Below are positions 1-40,060 of a DNA stretch of 40,060 bases, piece by piece (within the stretch, counting starts at the first letter, position 1; each line of letters begins with the position of its first letter). The stretch comes from Escherichia phage IMM-002. The DNA is taken from sequence record NC_048071.1. One strand, 5' to 3'. The notes under the pieces are model-generated. The model saw only the letters and a list, made by a program, of their open reading frames with translations, ran no database searches and had not been told where the DNA came from. A program made the position numbers and the translations under genes.

Positions 1-189
1 TCTCACAGTTCAAGAACCTCAAGTCTCCCCATAGGGTCACTCTCAGTCCGACTCAAGGCCCTACCCATAGACCTTCGGTCTAAACCTCAAGTCATTGACC
101 CGAAGTCGCCCCGAAGTCTGGACTGATAGTGCCTATATCTTGTGGTTGGGACGATTGGTCGGGACTATATGTAGTGCCTCTGAGTCTCT
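1..189. repeat. Left direct terminal repeat (DTR), identical to 39872..40060
   Basis: First 189 nt match the last 189 nt of the window base for base (aligned by eye); T7-like genomes carry 160-230 bp DTRs. Confidence 0.9.
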
Positions 190-210
190 ATCTGTATCGA
201 CCTAATGTCA

Positions 211-305
211 ATCACCTACAGTCAACCAGCCTACAGTCTCACTACCTACAGTCATCTACCATCGGTAAAGCCATCACCTACAGCCAATAGACCTACAGTC
301 ACCAG
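211..305. repeat. Array of about 5 short direct repeats (A)CCTACAG(T/C)C next to the left DTR
   Basis: Copies at about 215, 230, 244, 277 and 292; analogous in position to the short repeats flanking the T7 terminal repeat. Confidence 0.6.
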
Positions 306-519
306 ACACTATGTCGACCTTCAGTTTATCAGAGTCCTAAGGTCTTAGACTCATAGGTTATCACATCCGGTCCGTTTAGCAGTCAGAGACCATAGCTGAC
401 TAGGGTTATCGTTGTTGGTGTCTGCCAACCGGACTCTTATTATCCATAGTACAGACTTAAAGTCAATCATCTGTAGTCGTCCTTATATAGTCACTGTACT
501 ACTGTATAAATTACCAGTG

Positions 520-548
520 TTGACAGTGGGTCTAACTTTTGGTTTAAT
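520..548 (+). promoter_or_regulatory. Candidate host sigma70 early promoter (TTGACA-17 nt-TTTAAT)
   Basis: -35 TTGACA 520..525, 17-nt spacer, -10 TTTAAT 543..548; position matches the T7 A1-A3 region. Confidence 0.55.
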
Positions 549-656
549 AGCTTCCGTCAACACGACACGGCAAACACCGGATAGTAGAGACACCGGGTCA
601 CACGGTTAAGTAGACAGCCTGATAAGTCATACGAACAACAGGCAGTGACAAATAGC

Positions 657-686
657 TTGACAAGATGTAGCGACTTAACGTAGTAT
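657..686 (+). promoter_or_regulatory. Candidate host sigma70 early promoter (TTGACA-18 nt-TAGTAT)
   Basis: -35 TTGACA 657..662, -10 TAGTAT 681..686; resembles T7 A2/A3 (TTGACA...TAAGAT). Confidence 0.55.
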
Positions 687-886
687 GCACCACATCGACA
701 CGGCACCAACGGTCGATAAGCAGTACCAGAGGCACCGCCTCGCCGCTCTTTAACAATCTGGATAAACTCTTAATGTGCGCCGATAGTAAGCGATTAACTA
801 CAGGGCCTTGAGTCTACCGCGAGACGGGCTTGACTTGAGCGACTCAGGGTCCTGACTGATAGTCACTAACTTAAAGGATACACATC

Positions 887-1339
887 ATGATTTACACTAA
901 CGAACCAGCCAACGTCTTCTATGTGCTCGTGTCTGCCGCTCGTGCTAACCTGTCTGACACGGTGAACATGGGCCGTCAGTTAGGCCTTAAGGCGCTGCTG
1001 CAAGCCGGACCAGAATACTACGGCGTGCTCGAATGCACCGGGCTTACTGGGTGCTACCGCGAGGAAGGGCAGGAAGTCGCCACTGAAGAGAGGACCTACC
1101 GTGTGCGCTGCGAGTCAAAGGCTCAAGCTATCAACGTTGCACGACTGGCCTGCAATGACTTTGAGCAAGACTGCGTGATGGTCTACAAGTCTCAGACTCA
1201 CACGGCTGGACTGATGTTCTGCAAGGGCTGGGACGGCTACAAGACCACAAGTCTGAACGGGTCATTCCAGCAAGTCGATGAACCAAAGGGCGAATGCTTC
1301 ACGAAAGACGCTGAAGGTCGCTTCTGGGAGGTGGTGTAA
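887..1339 (+). CDS. 0.3: S-adenosylmethionine-degrading enzyme (T3 gp0.3 SAMase-like anti-restriction protein)
   Basis: 150 aa, first gene after the early promoters, AAAGGA RBS; N-terminus MIYTNEPANVFYVLVSA and motifs TGLTGCYRE, VRCESKAQAINVARLACN, VYKSQTHTAGL match my recollection of T3 SAMase; not acidic like T7 Ocr. Confidence 0.65.
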   Translation: MIYTNEPANVFYVLVSAARANLSDTVNMGRQLGLKALLQAGPEYYGVLECTGLTGCYREEGQEVATEERTYRVRCESKAQAINVARLACNDFEQDCVMVYKSQTHTAGLMFCKGWDGYKTTSLNGSFQQVDEPKGECFTKDAEGRFWEVV

Positions 1340-1659
1340 TGATTGCCTATAAAATCTTCCGAATCCGCAAGGATGGAACGCTGGGAGCACTATTCATCAA
1401 TCGTAAGGCGGTCATTGAGGTAGGAGAATGGTACGAGGCAGAGAGCCATCCGACCAAAGGGTTTGCCTATCGTCCGGGCTGGCACTGCACCTTTGAGCAG
1501 AACGCGCCACATCTTAAGCTGGACCTGAAGTCAGGTGAGCGTAGGGCTTGGTTTAAGGTAGAGGTTGAGAACATAACGACCTACGACAGGCCAGAATCTC
1601 AGGGTGGTGCATGGGTATTAGCACAGCGTCTGCGGGTATTAGCACAGGTCTCAGAGTGA
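1339..1659 (+). CDS. Hypothetical early protein, translationally coupled to 0.3 (TAATG overlap)
   Basis: 106-aa ORF, GGAGG RBS 7 nt upstream, no recognised motif. Confidence 0.55.
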   Translation: MIAYKIFRIRKDGTLGALFINRKAVIEVGEWYEAESHPTKGFAYRPGWHCTFEQNAPHLKLDLKSGERRAWFKVEVENITTYDRPESQGGAWVLAQRLRVLAQVSE

Positions 1660-1724
1660 TAAACTACAGGTCATCCACATGGGTGGCCTGACTGATTGTC
1701 ACTTAACCATAAGGAAACAACAAG

Positions 1725-2459
1725 ATGAACGCACACGATAAAGTAATCATGAATAACCTGATGTCTCAGCTTCACGCTATAATCTGTAAGGCCGGTTATA
1801 AGGTGGAGTCGTTGGGGTCGGGCATCGCTGCGCAGGACCGCTGGGGAGCCGTTGAGGTCCTAGCCCGTGAGCATGGCTACAAGCTGTTAGGTCTGGGGCA
1901 CTTCGCCGCTGCCTTTGAGCATGAGGACCTGCCGGGGTATGCCATCAAGGTAGGCTTTAAGAAGGACGACTCAGGCGCTGCGTATGCTGCCTTCTGCCGA
2001 GAGAATGAGGGCATGGCTGGACTACCAGTCATCCATCTGGTCAAGCGCTTCAGCAGGGCTTACATGGTCGCTATGGACAAGTACCGCTCGCTTGAGGACA
2101 TCGGTGGGAACTACTGCCGGGAGGGCAAGACCTACGAGCAGCGAGTCTTAAACGTGTCGTGGCGTGTAGTCAACGCGATAATAGACCAGTGTGAACAGCC
2201 ATCCGAAGCACTGAGCTGGTGGCTTGACCAAGACGCTCGCATAGAGTTTGCACACGTCGAGACTCAGTACATCAAAGACCTTGCGCAGACTGCTAAGAAG
2301 ATTAACAGCTTCTTCTACGGGCTGGCATCGTTCGACACTCATCGCGCTAACGTGATGGTTGACAATAACGGGCGCTTGATAATCACGGACCCGGTGTCTT
2401 GGACTGCAAGCGACCATCAAGATGAGCTGCAAGGCAGGCTGAACGCAATAGCTGAGTGA
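1725..2459 (+). CDS. 0.7: Ser/Thr protein kinase, T7 gp0.7-like, kinase domain only
   Basis: 244 aa; GHFAAAFEHEDLPGYAIKVGFKKDDSGAAYAAFCR and ITDPVS match the T7 gp0.7 kinase core; C-terminal shut-off domain (about 115 aa in T7) absent. Confidence 0.85.
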   Translation: MNAHDKVIMNNLMSQLHAIICKAGYKVESLGSGIAAQDRWGAVEVLAREHGYKLLGLGHFAAAFEHEDLPGYAIKVGFKKDDSGAAYAAFCRENEGMAGLPVIHLVKRFSRAYMVAMDKYRSLEDIGGNYCREGKTYEQRVLNVSWRVVNAIIDQCEQPSEALSWWLDQDARIEFAHVETQYIKDLAQTAKKINSFFYGLASFDTHRANVMVDNNGRLIITDPVSWTASDHQDELQGRLNAIAE

Positions 2460-2525
2460 TAGGCGAGAGACCGCTACATCTAGTGGTCTCAAAGATTATC
2501 TCTCACAACATATAGGCAGGTGTAC

Positions 2526-2720
2526 ATGGGCTGGATACTTCTGGTCATCGGCTACGGGTTAATACTCGCAGTCATCACGAAAGACATCATCAAGGCACGT
2601 AAAGTCTACCGCTTCCAGTATGTGTCTCTGGGTCGCTGGACTGTAAGACAACCAAACGGACGCTTTATGCGTAACCTCGCAAACGTCTGGGACATCGCAA
2701 CCTTAGGGAGCAAACTGTAA
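2526..2720 (+). CDS. Small membrane protein (one N-terminal TM helix), hypothetical
   Basis: ATG 2526 (track ORF opens at GTG 2520); hydrophobic GWILLVIGYGLILAVI then basic tail; TAATG coupling to next gene. Confidence 0.4.
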   Translation: MGWILLVIGYGLILAVITKDIIKARKVYRFQYVSLGRWTVRQPNGRFMRNLANVWDIATLGSKL

Positions 2721-3142
2721 TGTGTAAGACCTGCGCTAAGTGTGGCGAGACCAAGAGTCTTGACCAGTTCGGCAGCAATAAGCGCAACAAGGATGGTCTG
2801 GACTATCGCTGCAAGACTTGCAGAAAGCAGGACGCCCAAGACAGGAGGCAGAAGGCACGAGAGGCCGGGACCTACAAGACGTCAAAGGCTGAAGAGAACC
2901 GAAAGCTGCGCTACGGTCTGGACCTAGAGGAGTACGAGAGCCTCCTACAGCAGCAGGGTGGAGTCTGCGCAATCTGCAAGGGTCAGTGTCCTACCGGGTG
3001 GAGACTGGCGGTGGACCACTCACACGAGACCGGGAAGGTGCGCGGACTGCTCTGCCTACAATGTAATACAGCGCTGGGCCAGTTCAAAGACTCACCGGAA
3101 CTACTGGCAAACGCAATCAAATATCTTCAGGAGAATCAATAA
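2720..3142 (+). CDS. HNH / Endonuclease VII-family nuclease (putative free-standing homing-type endonuclease)
   Basis: 140 aa; N-terminal Cys4 zinc ribbon (CKTCAKCGETK...YRCKTCR) plus GGVCAICKG...LAVDHSHETGKVRGLLCLQCNTALGQF, the Endo VII/HNH signature. Confidence 0.7.
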   Translation: MCKTCAKCGETKSLDQFGSNKRNKDGLDYRCKTCRKQDAQDRRQKAREAGTYKTSKAEENRKLRYGLDLEEYESLLQQQGGVCAICKGQCPTGWRLAVDHSHETGKVRGLLCLQCNTALGQFKDSPELLANAIKYLQENQ

Positions 3143-3393
3143 TGTACACGCACAAGACCTCACGTCACACCGTTCGTCAACAGCAGGAGCGCGACCGGGT
3201 ACTGCAAGCAAGACTCCGGGCCGAGGGCAATAAGGCCGAGCTGATGTGCCTGGCCTACGGTGGACGACCACGCACTGGCGATGGTAAACTTCTGGTCTCA
3301 GGCTGGAGGGCGATAGACCAGCGGTCATACATCAAGCACACGACCAAAGGTGACTTCAGTCATCTCCACGCTAACCCACTGATATGCAAGTAG
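3142..3393 (+). CDS. Hypothetical basic protein, coupled to the HNH gene (TAATG)
   Basis: 83-aa ORF, AGGAG RBS, no recognised domain. Confidence 0.4.
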   Translation: MYTHKTSRHTVRQQQERDRVLQARLRAEGNKAELMCLAYGGRPRTGDGKLLVSGWRAIDQRSYIKHTTKGDFSHLHANPLICK

Positions 3394-3398
3394 TTTGG

Positions 3399-3421
3399 AC
3401 TAAACTATCACTAAAGGACTC
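3399..3421 (+). promoter_or_regulatory. Phage-type promoter variant (TAAACTATCACTAAAGGAC) upstream of the RNAP gene
   Basis: Matches the phage promoter core except A at -2; predicted +1 G at 3416. Confidence 0.5.
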
Positions 3422-3496
3422 AAGGTCGAAAGACTCTAAGTCAGGACTGAAGTGAAAGACTTTAGTGATAAGACAACAGTTATAAGGACTTTAAGT

Positions 3497-6178
3497 ATGA
3501 GCGTCATCTCAATTGACAAGCACGACTTCTCTGATGTGTCGAATGCAATCGAACCATTCAACGTGCTGGCTGACCACTACGGTCAGGACCTAGCAGTAAA
3601 ACAGCTTCAGCTTGAGCATGAGGCGTACACTGAAGGCGAGCGACGTTTCATCAAGAACCTTGAGCGCCAAGCTGAGCGCGGGGAGCTGGCAGACAATCAG
3701 GTCGCCAAGCCACTGATGCAAACTCTGGTCCCGACCATCGCCAAGGCTGTTCGTGAGTGGCACGAAGGCCCGGACGGTAAGTCCTCGACCTCTCGCCCAA
3801 GCGTAGCGTTTACCATGCTGAGCACTGACGAGAAGGCTGTCAAAGACCGCTCTCTGCGAATCTCTGCTGAGTCTGCTGCGGTCATCATACTGAAAGTCAT
3901 CCTCAGCAAGCTGGTCAAGCCTGAGGGAATCCCGATAACGCCGATGGCCTCCGCGATTGGTCGCACACTTGAAGATGAAATCCGCTTCGGTCGCATCCGT
4001 GAGCAGGAGCAGGAGCACTTCAAGAAGACCATAGCTGAGAATCTGAAGAAACGTGCAGGAGCAAGCTACAAGAAAGCCTACATGCAAGCGGTCGAAGCCT
4101 CCATGCTGGAGCAAGGGCAACTGGCTGACGCTTGGGGGACTTGGAGTCCGACCGAGGCGGTACACGTAGGCATCAAGATGCTGGAGCTGGTCATCCAGTC
4201 CTCGCAACTGGTCGAACTGAAGCGCTACGGTGCGGGTAACGCTGCGGCAGACGTCGAGATGGTCCACCTGTCAGACTTCTGGGTCAAGAAGATGTCGCAA
4301 CGTGGCTTCTCACTGGCTGGCATCGCTCCGGTCTACCAACCTTGCGTCGTTCCACCTAAGCCGTGGACCGGGGTCGTGGGTGGTGGGTACTGGGCTAAGG
4401 GCCGAAGACCTCTCCCGCTGATTCGCTTAGGGTCCAAGGCTGCGGTCCAGCGCTACGAAGACGTGTACATGCCTGAAGTCTACGAGGCAGTGAATATCAT
4501 CCAGCAGACACCTTGGAAGGTGAACAAGAAGGTGCTGGACGTGGTGAACATGGTCGAGAAGCTGAACAACACGCCTATCGCTGACATCCCTCAGATGGAA
4601 CCGATGAAGCCTGAGGACTATGCAGGTGAGACCGAGGAAGAACTCAAAGCGTGGAAGAAAGCCGCTGCTGGTATCTATCGACGCGAGAAGGCCCGACAGT
4701 CCCGCCGTTTGTCCCTGAGCTTCATCGTCGGACAGGCGAACAAGTTCTCTCAGTTCAAGGCCATCTGGTTCCCATACAACATGGACTGGCGCGGTCGAGT
4801 CTATGCGGTCCCGATGTTCAACCCTCAGGGTAACGACATGCAGAAGGGCCTGCTGACTCTGGCAGTAGGCAAGCCAATCGGTGCGGACGGCTTCAAGTGG
4901 CTGAAGGTCCACGGTGCAAACTGCGCTGGTGTCGATAAAGTCACCTTCGAGGAGCGCATCAAGTGGGTCGAAGACAACCACGACAACATCCTCGCGGCTG
5001 CTAAGAGTCCGATGGATAGCATTGACTGGTGGGGTCAGTTAGACTCTCCGTTCTGCTTCCTCGCGTTCTGCTTCGAGTATGCTGGAGTCATGCACCACGG
5101 GCTGAGCTACTCCTGCTCACTGCCTATCGCGTTCGATGGGTCCTGCTCTGGGATTCAGCACTTCAGCGCGATGCTTCGTGACCACGTTGGTGGACATGCG
5201 GTCAACCTGACGCCAAGCGGGAAGGTCCAAGACATCTACCGCATTGTGTCAGACCGGGTGGAAGAACAGCTTAAGGAGCTGCTGGTCAACGGAAGTGACA
5301 ACGAGGTGAAGACCTTCGAGGACAAGAAGACAGGCGAGATTACTGAACGTCTGGTCCTTGGAACTCGCGAGCTGGCCCGTCAGTGGCTGACCTACGGGAT
5401 GTCACGCTCGGTCACTAAACGCTCGGTCATGACTCTGGCCTATGGGTCGAAGGAATACGGGTTCGCGGACCAAGTGTTTGAGGACACCGTGATGCCAGCG
5501 ATTGACAGCGGCAAGGGCGCGATGTTCACGGACCCAAGCCAAGCGTCACGCTTCATGGCTAAGATGATTTGGGATGCGGTAAGCGTGACCGTAGTTGCTG
5601 CGGTAGACGCGATGAAGTGGCTGCAAGGCGCTGCTAAACTGCTGGCTGCTGAGGTCAAGGACAAGAAGACAAAAGAGGTCCTTAAGCCTTGCCTCCCGGT
5701 TCACTGGGTAACGCCTGATGGCTTCCCGGTCTGGCAGGAATACCGAAAGAAGGACACCACCCGTCTGAACCTCCTGTTCCTTGGGTCGTTCAACCTGCAA
5801 CCGACAGTCAACAAAGGGTCTAAGAAAGAGCTGGACAAGCACAAGCAGGAGTCTGGTATCAGCCCTAACTTTGTACACTCACAGGACGGCAGTCACCTGA
5901 GGAAGACTGTGGTCCACACCCACCGCAAGTATGGCGTGATGTCCTTCGCAGTGATTCACGATAGCTTCGGGACCATCCCGGCTGACGCTGAGTTCCTGTT
6001 CAAGGGTGTCCGTGAGACGATGGTTGAGACCTACCGCGACAACGATGTGCTGCAAGACTTCTACGAGCAGTTCGCAGACCAGCTTCATGAGAGCCAGCGC
6101 GACAAGTTGCCCGAGCTGCCGAAGCGCGGTAAACTGAACATCGAAGACATTCTGTTATCTGACTTTGCATTCGCCTAA
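3497..6178 (+). CDS. 1: Single-subunit DNA-directed RNA polymerase (T7 gene 1 type)
   Basis: 893 aa from ATG 3497 (AAGGA RBS; track ORF opens at 3452); collinear with T7 RNAP incl. PWTGxxGGGYWA, AIWFPYNMDWRGRVYA, FCFLAFCFEYAGV, SGIQHFSAMLRD, HDSFGT and C-terminal SDFAFA. Confidence 0.97.
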   Translation: MSVISIDKHDFSDVSNAIEPFNVLADHYGQDLAVKQLQLEHEAYTEGERRFIKNLERQAERGELADNQVAKPLMQTLVPTIAKAVREWHEGPDGKSSTSRPSVAFTMLSTDEKAVKDRSLRISAESAAVIILKVILSKLVKPEGIPITPMASAIGRTLEDEIRFGRIREQEQEHFKKTIAENLKKRAGASYKKAYMQAVEASMLEQGQLADAWGTWSPTEAVHVGIKMLELVIQSSQLVELKRYGAGNAAADVEMVHLSDFWVKKMSQRGFSLAGIAPVYQPCVVPPKPWTGVVGGGYWAKGRRPLPLIRLGSKAAVQRYEDVYMPEVYEAVNIIQQTPWKVNKKVLDVVNMVEKLNNTPIADIPQMEPMKPEDYAGETEEELKAWKKAAAGIYRREKARQSRRLSLSFIVGQANKFSQFKAIWFPYNMDWRGRVYAVPMFNPQGNDMQKGLLTLAVGKPIGADGFKWLKVHGANCAGVDKVTFEERIKWVEDNHDNILAAAKSPMDSIDWWGQLDSPFCFLAFCFEYAGVMHHGLSYSCSLPIAFDGSCSGIQHFSAMLRDHVGGHAVNLTPSGKVQDIYRIVSDRVEEQLKELLVNGSDNEVKTFEDKKTGEITERLVLGTRELARQWLTYGMSRSVTKRSVMTLAYGSKEYGFADQVFEDTVMPAIDSGKGAMFTDPSQASRFMAKMIWDAVSVTVVAAVDAMKWLQGAAKLLAAEVKDKKTKEVLKPCLPVHWVTPDGFPVWQEYRKKDTTRLNLLFLGSFNLQPTVNKGSKKELDKHKQESGISPNFVHSQDGSHLRKTVVHTHRKYGVMSFAVIHDSFGTIPADAEFLFKGVRETMVETYRDNDVLQDFYEQFADQLHESQRDKLPELPKRGKLNIEDILLSDFAFA

Positions 6179-6190
6179 GGAGGCATCTAC

Positions 6191-6391
6191 ATGAAATTCG
6201 CACACAAGCAAACTGGCGTTAAAGGCGGTACTCAAATCGTGACCGTGACCGAGCACAATGGCAAAGGTCTGGTGAAGACCACGGTCATCCCAACCGAGAT
6301 GTCAAAGCAGCTTAACGTCCCATTCAAGTGGCTGGTGAAGCTGGTTCAAGAGCGACACGAGTCAGAACTCCGCGAGGTGGTAACGAAATGA
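6191..6391 (+). CDS. Hypothetical protein
   Basis: 66-aa ORF with strong TAAGGAGG RBS directly after RNAP stop. Confidence 0.55.
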   Translation: MKFAHKQTGVKGGTQIVTVTEHNGKGLVKTTVIPTEMSKQLNVPFKWLVKLVQERHESELREVVTK

Positions 6392-6465
6392 CAGACCTTA
6401 AGTGGCTGGCCCTATGGCTGGCCTTCTTAGCAGTGTACATCTTAATCCAACGCAGAAGAGGCTAA
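6388..6465 (+). CDS. 25-codon hydrophobic microprotein (MTDLKWLALWLAFLAVYILIQRRRG)
   Basis: ATGA overlap with upstream stop, GAGGTGG 7 nt upstream, one TM-like helix plus RRR anchor; below ORF-track size cut-off. Confidence 0.35.
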   Translation: MTDLKWLALWLAFLAVYILIQRRRG

Positions 6466-6471
6466 ACACCA

Positions 6472-6929
6472 TGTTCAACCGTAAACTGAAGGCACGTATC
6501 GCAGCACTTGAAGCAACCATACAGCGTCAGGACCACAACCTTGAGCTGGCTAATCGAGAGCAAGCACGGCTGAGGGCCAAACTACAAAAAGCTGAGACCA
6601 AGCGTGAAGTCGAGCCTTTACGTGTGAAGCGCATGGTCGGCCTGAAGTTCAAGGCGCTGTTCAACGGTATCTACCAGCCGACTGAGTTCAAGACCGGGCC
6701 GGGACCATGTGGAAAGACAGTAACGCACTTCACCACGAGCCGAGACGAGCGGACGCTGACCATCCACCAGCACCATACGGACGAGTCCAGCAAGAGCTTT
6801 GAGTATCGGCTGAGCGACATCGACGGTCGCATCCAGTATGACTACGAGCTGGTGCAGGTTTACGGTGAGGAGGCAGAGCGGGAACGTATGGTCCAAGCCC
6901 TCCGCAACAGACCGCGCTTCATAGCCTAA
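6472..6929 (+). CDS. Hypothetical protein with N-terminal coiled-coil
   Basis: ATG 6472 preferred (GTG 6402 in track overlaps the microprotein); KLKARIAALEATIQRQDHNLELANREQARLRAKLQKAE heptad-like region. Confidence 0.5.
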
Positions 6930-39871: not shown

Positions 39872-40060
39872 TCTCACAGTTCAAGAACCTCAAGTCTCCC
39901 CATAGGGTCACTCTCAGTCCGACTCAAGGCCCTACCCATAGACCTTCGGTCTAAACCTCAAGTCATTGACCCGAAGTCGCCCCGAAGTCTGGACTGATAG
40001 TGCCTATATCTTGTGGTTGGGACGATTGGTCGGGACTATATGTAGTGCCTCTGAGTCTCT
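39872..40060. repeat. Right direct terminal repeat (DTR)
   Basis: Identical to 1..189; window ends inside or at the end of the repeat. Confidence 0.9.

Follow-up and report, generated by a model that had tools for sequence, protein, structure and literature searches.

The left end of the genome of Escherichia phage IMM-002 (NC_048071.1; 40,060 bp, referred to here in its entirety as the window) carries an open reading frame (ORF) of 106 amino acids (aa) directly behind a SAMase gene. This ORF is a real gene that is exchanged among phages as an accessory cassette, and its product is predicted to be a compact domain resembling ADP-ribosyltransferases (ARTs). The window has an exact 189-bp direct terminal repeat at its two ends (1-189 and 39872-40060) and is therefore a complete linear genome, of the T7-like, Kayfunavirus-like type. 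IMG/VR record UViG_2974592685_000001 is identical to it, and over its left 4 kb, Kayfunavirus-type phages that infect Enterobacter, Shigella, Salmonella, Escherichia, and Klebsiella share 84-90% identity with it. Because the ORF is flanked by a SAMase (0.3) gene and a 0.7 kinase gene and lies upstream of the RNA polymerase (RNAP) gene, it belongs to the class I early block, where the original prediction, made from the sequence alone, had placed it. The principal features of the locus are as follows:

887-1339, plus strand: SAMase gene (gene 0.3 type; Pfam PF23780, E 6.9e-40), the upstream cistron
1327-1332, plus strand: Shine-Dalgarno sequence GGAGGT, read from the sequence, 6 nt before the ATG and within the last SAMase codons
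1339-1659, plus strand: ORF under study, 106 aa plus stop, a single-domain member of PHROG 12224
1345-1653, plus strand: exchanged cassette, with no counterpart in Shigella phage SFPH2 (blastn)
1725-2459: gp0.7-type kinase gene (phrog_15752, E 5.6e-108), downstream of the 106-aa ORF
3452-6178: T7-type RNAP gene

The ORF is a protein-coding gene

The original prediction described the ORF as starting on the stop codon of the 0.3 gene with a strong ribosome-binding site (RBS), and it does so: the SAMase stop codon TAA (1337-1339) and the ATG of the ORF (1339-1341) have one A in common (GTGTAATG), and upstream of the start lies GGGAGGTGG (1326-1334), with GGAGGT 6 nt before the ATG. Since chance ORFs of similar or greater length (110-225 aa) are present in other frames of this GC-rich genome, length alone is no proof of a gene, and the coding assignment rests on homology and selection. 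A comparison with the copy in phage Pisces (107 codons, 84% nucleotide identity) revealed 44 synonymous and 3 nonsynonymous codon differences. Homologs of the protein number 942 in a collection of 5.8 billion proteins, 953 homologous cluster representatives were obtained at 50% identity, and the conservation extends over the full length. These data, together with the strong RBS at ideal spacing and a confident structure prediction, argue against a chance frame, and we conclude that the 106-aa ORF is a real gene under purifying selection.

Where the gene has been catalogued, it bears only the label "hypothetical," and clear homologs in Pectobacterium phage phiTE (5001-5312) and Enterobacter phage NJ2 (1501-1815) were left unannotated in the GenBank records. 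The 3' end of the ORF contains an exact 14-nt direct repeat, GGGTATTAGCACAG (1613-1626 and 1634-1647, spaced 21 nt and in frame), which encodes VLAQ twice (WVLAQRLRVLAQ) and could be either a seven-codon duplication or a chance occurrence.

A highly conserved single-domain family

The original prediction could assign the ORF to no family. This stood for Pfam, NCBIfam, and PADLOC, scans of which gave no match to the protein (0 families at E values up to 10 for NCBIfam and PADLOC), but not for the PHROG collection, in which residues 1-104 align with profile positions 5-108 (of 110) of the uncharacterized PHROG 12224 (E 1.1e-51). An ART-like fold and weak DUF7666 scores, described below, further qualify that claim. 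Comparisons with the PDB by sequence and profile gave no credible match; the sole hit, dipicolinate synthase (E 0.66-0.88), was set aside as a chance match.

An alignment of 38 sequences with 57-86% identity contains 24 invariant columns and the conserved motifs PLFIN, PTKGFAxRPGWH, APHL, RVW, and RPESQGGxWxLA. Among 54 more diverse members, K5 is invariant, and G13, L18, F19, R45, H49, A56, P57, H58, R69, W71, R84, P85, Q88, G89, G90, and W92 are conserved in at least 90% of the sequences. Members from coliphages, Vibrio myoviruses, and uncultured environmental phages are about 55-70% identical to one another. Such strong conservation is unusual in a phage protein of this size. The searchable literature contained no mention of the family (by PHROG identifiers or accessions) or of DUF7666, GP88, or DUF7178, three families that recur below.

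The predicted structure resembles ADP-ribosyltransferases

The remote-homology and structure-prediction check proposed with the original prediction was run and yielded an ART-like fold and weak similarity to DUF7666 and RIIB. The AlphaFold2 (AF2) model built with the family alignment (pLDDT 93.5, pTM 0.85) is mostly beta and has the split beta-sheet of the ART fold. In a Foldseek search of the PDB, the top match was Arr, a rifampin ADP-ribosyltransferase (prob 0.96, TM 0.45), Arr-2 ranked third, and the matches other than these two look like noise. On the basis of this model, the protein appears to be a single compact domain with a fold that resembles that of ARTs.

The closest known counterparts are minimal members of the ART superfamily, such as Arr, the NAD lobe of Tpt1/KptA, DUF952 (CC0527), AcrIF11, and the Rhs toxins TreX/TreTu. 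At 106 aa, the window protein would be shorter than the smallest ART-fold chain among the structure-search matches (113 aa), and it has no detectable sequence or profile similarity to the superfamily. Its invariant polar set consists of K5, R45, H49, H58, R69, R84, and Q88. Canonical ART active sites show one of the patterns H-Y-[EDQ], R-S-E, or H-H-h on strands 1, 2, and 5 (PMC9503650, PMC5512222). The conserved polar residues K5, N21, H49, H58, R69, R84, and Q88 form no obvious canonical triad.

Two candidate relationships at the profile level were tried and rejected. An hhalign comparison with Arr-2 covered 20 columns at E 0.14, which is noise. Several DUF952 motifs (the YK strand, G-x-H-x-[ST], S-[RQ]-G-G, and PHL) looked co-linear by eye; the hhalign comparison, made with the single sequence CC0527 and with a 22-sequence profile that is shallow (all sequences >70% identical), gave P values of 0.25-0.59, and its score was matched by 77 of 200 shuffles.

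Possible kinship with DUF7666 and T4 RIIB

A Foldseek search of BFVD retrieved a family member first (E 8e-14), followed by a 1383-aa uncultured-virus protein and a Rheinheimera phage "pentapeptide" protein (E 8.5e-4). Models of DUF7666 proteins were found at E values of 8.5e-4 to 2e-2 (prob about 1), and many models of T4-type RIIB proteins were found at E values of 0.03-0.5 (prob 0.75-1; TM 0.49-0.59 on the query). DUF7666 proteins are phage and giant-virus proteins of 170-560 aa that are often annotated "pentapeptide" and are multidomain. The Pfam DUF7666 model (PF24703) gave subthreshold scores in both families: four of the 38 members of the 106-aa family were hit, with a best E of 0.0024, as were three of 31 RIIB proteins, with a best E of 0.0021. 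As these scores lie below the gathering score, the 106-aa family is not DUF7666 by the rule of Pfam.

In hhalign comparisons between the family and RIIB, the whole domain aligned with residues ~211-309 of T4 RIIB over 98-99 co-linear columns (P 0.007-0.035), a score reached by 3 of 200 column shuffles, and the family hidden Markov model gave per-sequence P values of 1e-4 to 2e-2 against RIIB proteins. The alignment pairs K5 with K215 ([YW]-K, first strand), N21 with N231 (F-x-N), H49 with H257 (G-x-H), and the second histidine, H58, with H266; an R-V pair and a proline are also conserved in both. In the AF2 model of T4 RIIB, the strand order of the C-terminal region is co-linear with that of the 106-aa model. 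The RIIB C-terminal domain (~205-312) and the 106-aa protein appear alike in predicted fold, conserved positions, and strand order, and both genes are nonessential phage genes. They differ in architecture: RIIB proteins (~300-440 aa) consist of an N-terminal helix-turn-helix (HTH; matches at residues 7-50 of T4 RIIB) and a middle domain in addition to the C-terminal one and work with RIIA, whereas the 106-aa protein is the bare domain, encoded beside SAMase and kinase genes in a phage without rII genes. The full T4-type RIIB architecture with a rIIA partner was accordingly not found for the 106-aa ORF.

Judging by the classical r1589 deletion, the rIIB cistron reportedly does not need its beginning, which fits a functional C-terminal part. 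Each of the structural and sequence lines is weak; jointly, they make a distant kinship between the 106-aa family and the RIIB C-terminal domain plausible, and the 106-aa domain is probably a distant relative of both DUF7666 and this domain. Judged from the models and the alignment, this part of T4 RIIB seems to have the fold in common with the 106-aa family, along with several conserved positions (K215, N231, G255, and H257), in which case it would also be ART-like. No mention of an ART-like fold in this part of RIIB was found in the searchable literature. RIIB, a classic antidefense (anti-RexAB) protein, is required on RexAB hosts and is detected by a bacterial gasdermin/CARD system. The comparison supplies no function for the 106-aa protein.

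The gene is an exchanged accessory cassette

In the isolate-phage collection, 38 records encode the protein, of which only three, namely, Pisces, vB_EclP_26, and the Berlinvirus NJ2, come from T7-like phages; the DNA flanking the ORF in the window is common to 387 records. Among isolates, the gene is otherwise carried by myoviruses: Certrevirus-type phages of 140-155 kb that infect Cronobacter, Pectobacterium, Enterobacter, or Escherichia (62-73% identity) and phages of Vibrio (54-58% identity). IMG/VR contributed 298 further loci on contigs of a few kb to 330 kb, and the carrier phages, uncultured ones included, range from 38 kb to >300 kb. The plasmid collection contained two matches in 72,556 records, both distant, and the idea that this is a leading-region gene of conjugative elements was rejected on these grounds.

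The boundaries of the exchanged segment are sharp. Homology with SFPH2 (blastn) covers 745-1344 and resumes at 1654; in place of the 106-aa ORF, SFPH2 is annotated with three unrelated small ORFs. Homology with Pisces begins exactly at 1339, the first base of the ORF, and the body of the SAMase gene is divergent. The GC content at third codon positions is 0.55 in the ORF versus 0.63-0.69 in neighboring genes. The 106-aa ORF is a mobile accessory cassette that is dispensable and horizontally exchanged.

This mobility also bears on the coupling to the SAMase gene that the original prediction emphasized. The gap between the two genes is 1 nt in vB_EclP_26 and 69 nt in Pisces, and NJ2 has an extra 40-aa ORF between the SAMase gene and the homolog. 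Given these differences in spacing, the overlap is local to the window genome, an accident rather than a conserved link, and we rejected a functional link to the SAMase, since neither Pisces nor NJ2 shows the overlap. The early accessory proteins of the T7 group (0.3 Ocr/SAMase, 0.4, 0.6, and the 0.7 kinase) resemble the 106-aa protein in genomic slot, timing, small size, and dispensability. They have no sequence relationship to it (its PHROG matches are limited to 12224 and 30118), and unlike them, the 106-aa protein is common to unrelated myoviruses and uncultured phages.

Domain architectures and genomic context

A second form of the domain (phrog_30118), with an insert of ~40-60 aa, occurs within proteins of 469-2936 aa, including P0247, P0263, P0249, P0251, and P0260. 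Proteins with this form also bear LPD22, DUF7178, or GP88, such proteins being 683-2936 aa long, or have a weak GNAT match directly upstream of the domain; the largest, P0247 (2936 aa), has LPD22 and DUF7178. A short-form homolog, P0067, has an N-terminal LPD18 domain. The domain thus recurs in large multidomain proteins with LPD domains, as modules of polyvalent proteins do, and the window protein is its stand-alone form. Polyvalent proteins are predicted to be delivered with the virion and to act early in infection (Iyer et al.; PMC5512222, PMC9503650). ARTs are reported to be their commonest protein- or macromolecule-modifying domains (PMC9503650, PMC5512222), and GNAT domains typically neighbor ARTs in them (PMC5512222). 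In the isolate Roseobacter phage CRP-212, a 1203-aa hypothetical protein (gp38; 2975-6586) contains the insert form at residues ~343-530, and its gene sits directly after those for the terminase and portal, where genes for effectors that are packaged in the head and injected have been described (PMC9503650). The domain is repeatedly followed by DUF7178 (PF23802), as in P0247, P0249, and P0263, and DUF7178 is also found as a separate gene (locus L011, 48-731) ~4 kb from a stand-alone homolog.

For a census of neighbors, we clustered every ORF located no more than 10 kb from the gene at 91 loci. The neighborhoods are very diverse, with some recurrent partners. GP88 (PF17338) was found at 21 of the 91 loci and directly precedes the homolog in three or more distinct contexts; in unrelated contigs, its gene is located 16-46 bp upstream of the homolog (L005, 4269-5318; also L006, L042, L045, and L074), and P0251 combines the domain with a GP88 module in one protein. 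GP88, which carries a CX7CX3C motif, is likely to be a functional partner of the 106-aa family; a look-up of GP88 returned neither a structure nor a function. Integrase (14/91), HicA (11/91), and DUF932 (9/91) genes were also recurrent. ArdC-N together with a metallopeptidase was found at 6 of the 91 loci; in three of these, ArdC lies 27 bp ahead of the homolog.

NAD-salvage genes were found near the homolog at 13 of the 91 loci, representing two phage lineages. In the first, the Certrevirus group, Nampt and Prs genes lie 1.5-2 kb from the homolog (L002 and L003). In the second, the homolog resides within a cluster composed of a PncA-like gene (isochorismatase-like, possibly a nicotinamidase), an ORF, a CYTH gene, and an NAPRTase gene at six loci (L012, 3472-8521; L054, 9040-11491; and L046, L056, L057, and L060).

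Candidate processing sites and other early genes

Additional features of the left end are as follows:

657-686, plus strand: sigma-70-like candidate early promoter (TTGACA, 18 nt, TAGTAT; 10/12 consensus) that could drive the block
785-872, plus strand: RNase III-site-like hairpin 5' of the SAMase gene (-35.9 kcal/mol, z -4.5, 0/200 shuffles as good)
1655-1703, plus strand: RNase III-site-like hairpin (-24.2 kcal/mol, z -4.1, 0/200 shuffles as good)
Between the gp0.7-type kinase gene and the endonuclease VII/HNH-like gene: 66-aa ORF
2720-3142: endonuclease VII/HNH-like gene (Pfam PF02945, E 1.7e-25)
Between the endonuclease VII/HNH-like gene and the RNAP gene: 83-aa ORF

T7 early mRNA is processed by RNase III, and by likeness to it the two hairpins are candidate RNase III sites. 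As they bracket both genes, the SAMase gene and the ORF are probably carried on one processed bicistronic mRNA. The hairpin at 1655-1703 overlaps the stop codon of the ORF and coincides with the right-hand joint of the cassette. Both arms are common to the two hairpins, the repeats AGYGATWAACTACAGG ... CCTGACTGATWGTCACT recurring within 789-867, and the same element is present twice in SFPH2 (1880-1932 and from 2318 onward), at the cassette joints. This duplication at the SFPH2 joints suggests that the hairpin repeats are sites of cassette recombination, and the hairpins may serve both mRNA processing and the shuffling of early cassettes. An Rfam scan of window positions 1-4000 gave no matches. 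The number of sigma-70-like sites is not above the shuffled expectation, and the match at 657-686 is weak. A terminator-like site on the minus strand (1593-1577) was set aside, the count of such sites being equal to the shuffled expectation.

The gp0.7-type kinase of the window has 244 aa, versus 378 aa in phage NJ2 (2039-3175), and it seems to lack the C-terminal part, which in T7 gp0.7 is linked to host transcription shut-off. The ATG of the endonuclease VII/HNH-like gene overlaps the stop codon of the preceding 66-aa ORF, and the N-terminal zinc ribbon of its product also matches a Lar-like restriction-alleviation PHROG; this gene may encode a homing endonuclease or another antirestriction module.

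Proposed role and alternative explanations

The original prediction put the ORF forward as a candidate host-takeover or antidefense factor. The early slot, the mobility, the occurrence in polyvalent proteins, the ArdC and NAD-salvage neighbors, and the weak likeness to RIIB fit such a role, and we consider it fairly likely that the protein is an accessory counterdefense or host-takeover factor in the broad sense. A more specific proposal is tentative: that it is an effector that, as soon as the phage has entered, uses NAD+/ADP-ribose chemistry to act on a ligand or target that is conserved universally. Early expression or predicted virion-borne delivery, dispensability, exchange between phages, strong conservation, the ART-like fold, and the antirestriction and NAD-salvage neighbors would all fit an effector that acts on entry; the pointer to NAD+/ADP-ribose chemistry comes from the predicted fold.

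In this proposal, host RNAP would transcribe the ORF together with the SAMase gene after phage entry, and RNase III-type cuts would leave the two on one bicistronic mRNA. The domain would reach the host in two ways, either as the product of a gene that is among the first expressed or within giant polyvalent proteins delivered with the virion. The protein would then act in the first minutes of infection on a target conserved across many bacteria, the candidates being a conserved host macromolecule combined with NAD+ or with a molecule derived from ADP-ribose. Its most likely activity would be the transfer of ADP-ribose to the target or some other processing of NAD+ or ADP-ribose, and the host defense would be disabled or the host reprogrammed. 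The NAD-linked chemistry, the target, and the antidefense outcome are the parts that we infer.

Several observations weigh against this proposal. No Pfam ART model matches any of the 38 members, even at E values up to 10, and the Arr-2 and DUF952 profile comparisons were at noise level. No canonical ART pattern could be placed by alignment, the weak alignments implying two conflicting registers. The NAD-salvage neighborhood comes from only two lineages and may reflect mere clustering of accessory genes. The link to RIIB rests on weak statistics. The searchable literature gave no experimental data on any family member. Finally, as far as the model goes, the fold may have been kept without NAD chemistry.

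The last point leads to the best-surviving alternative, which we regard as unlikely although it retains real weight, namely, that the protein is a noncatalytic binder of ART-like shape that serves as a stoichiometric inhibitor or decoy, with no NAD chemistry. Its partner would be a host defense sensor or effector or, as proposed for RIIB, a membrane or envelope component. Stoichiometric inhibitors, however, usually diverge fast and are host specific, whereas this family is ~55-70% identical across phage types, and its invariant Lys, Arg, His, and Gln positions suggest either catalysis or a ligand that is universal.

An improbable alternative is that the ART-type pocket acts as a nucleotide sponge or scavenger, sequestering or cleaving an NAD-derived immune signal or ADP-ribose. 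Such an activity would complement NAD regeneration by the PncA-like, NAPRTase, and CYTH or Nampt and Prs genes found nearby at 13 of the 91 loci, and conserved basic and aromatic residues are available. Known sponge proteins are small, as is the 106-aa protein. However, only the two phage lineages show the NAD-salvage association, no gene of this kind lies beside the ORF in the window, and no signal-sponge protein was among the matches listed in two structure searches.

We think it quite improbable that the protein has a phage-internal role, i.e., that it binds phage RNA or DNA or regulates early expression and is not directed at the host. Binding of nucleic acid by its conserved basic residues is conceivable; T4 RIIB has an N-terminal HTH and has been put forward as a transcription factor (PMC7824862). 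A role of this kind is difficult to reconcile with the absence of the gene from nearly all close relatives, which have unrelated ORFs in its place, with its movement between unrelated phage types, and with the embedding of the domain in polyvalent proteins predicted to be delivered to the host. That the ORF is a chance frame or has a mis-called start, no protein being made, is excluded by the conservation data, and we give this explanation practically no credence.

Extending the effector proposal to the possible relatives of the protein, one may imagine the 106-aa family, DUF7666, and the RIIB C-terminal domain as an unrecognized ART-fold clade that ADP-ribosylates, or otherwise processes, a conserved host component at the start of infection, its members arriving as products of the earliest genes or within injected polyvalent proteins. 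The clade would have an active-site set of its own, consisting of the first-strand Lys, the G-x-His strand, and the second His/Gln. We offer this wider reading as a speculative one that is doubtful in its full form.

Implications

The fold assignment, the occurrence in polyvalent proteins, and the possible tie to RIIB, all of which are computational, did not turn up in the searchable literature. If the predicted fold reflects function, the family would be among the smallest ART-type proteins, and a widespread one (~950 clusters and 298 IMG/VR loci), used by very different types of phages in the first minutes of infection. It would represent a new enzyme family in the counterdefense repertoire of phages and would suggest a reason for the NAD-salvage neighbors in two phage lineages. 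A kinship with RIIB, if real, would provide a simple, single-domain, soluble model for RIIB-type proteins, and if the three families do form one clade, the 70-year-old rII/Rex problem would gain an NAD-linked biochemical hypothesis. Even if the domain is noncatalytic, it must recognize something very conserved in bacteria, because it is 55-70% identical across coliphages, Vibrio phages, and uncultured phages.

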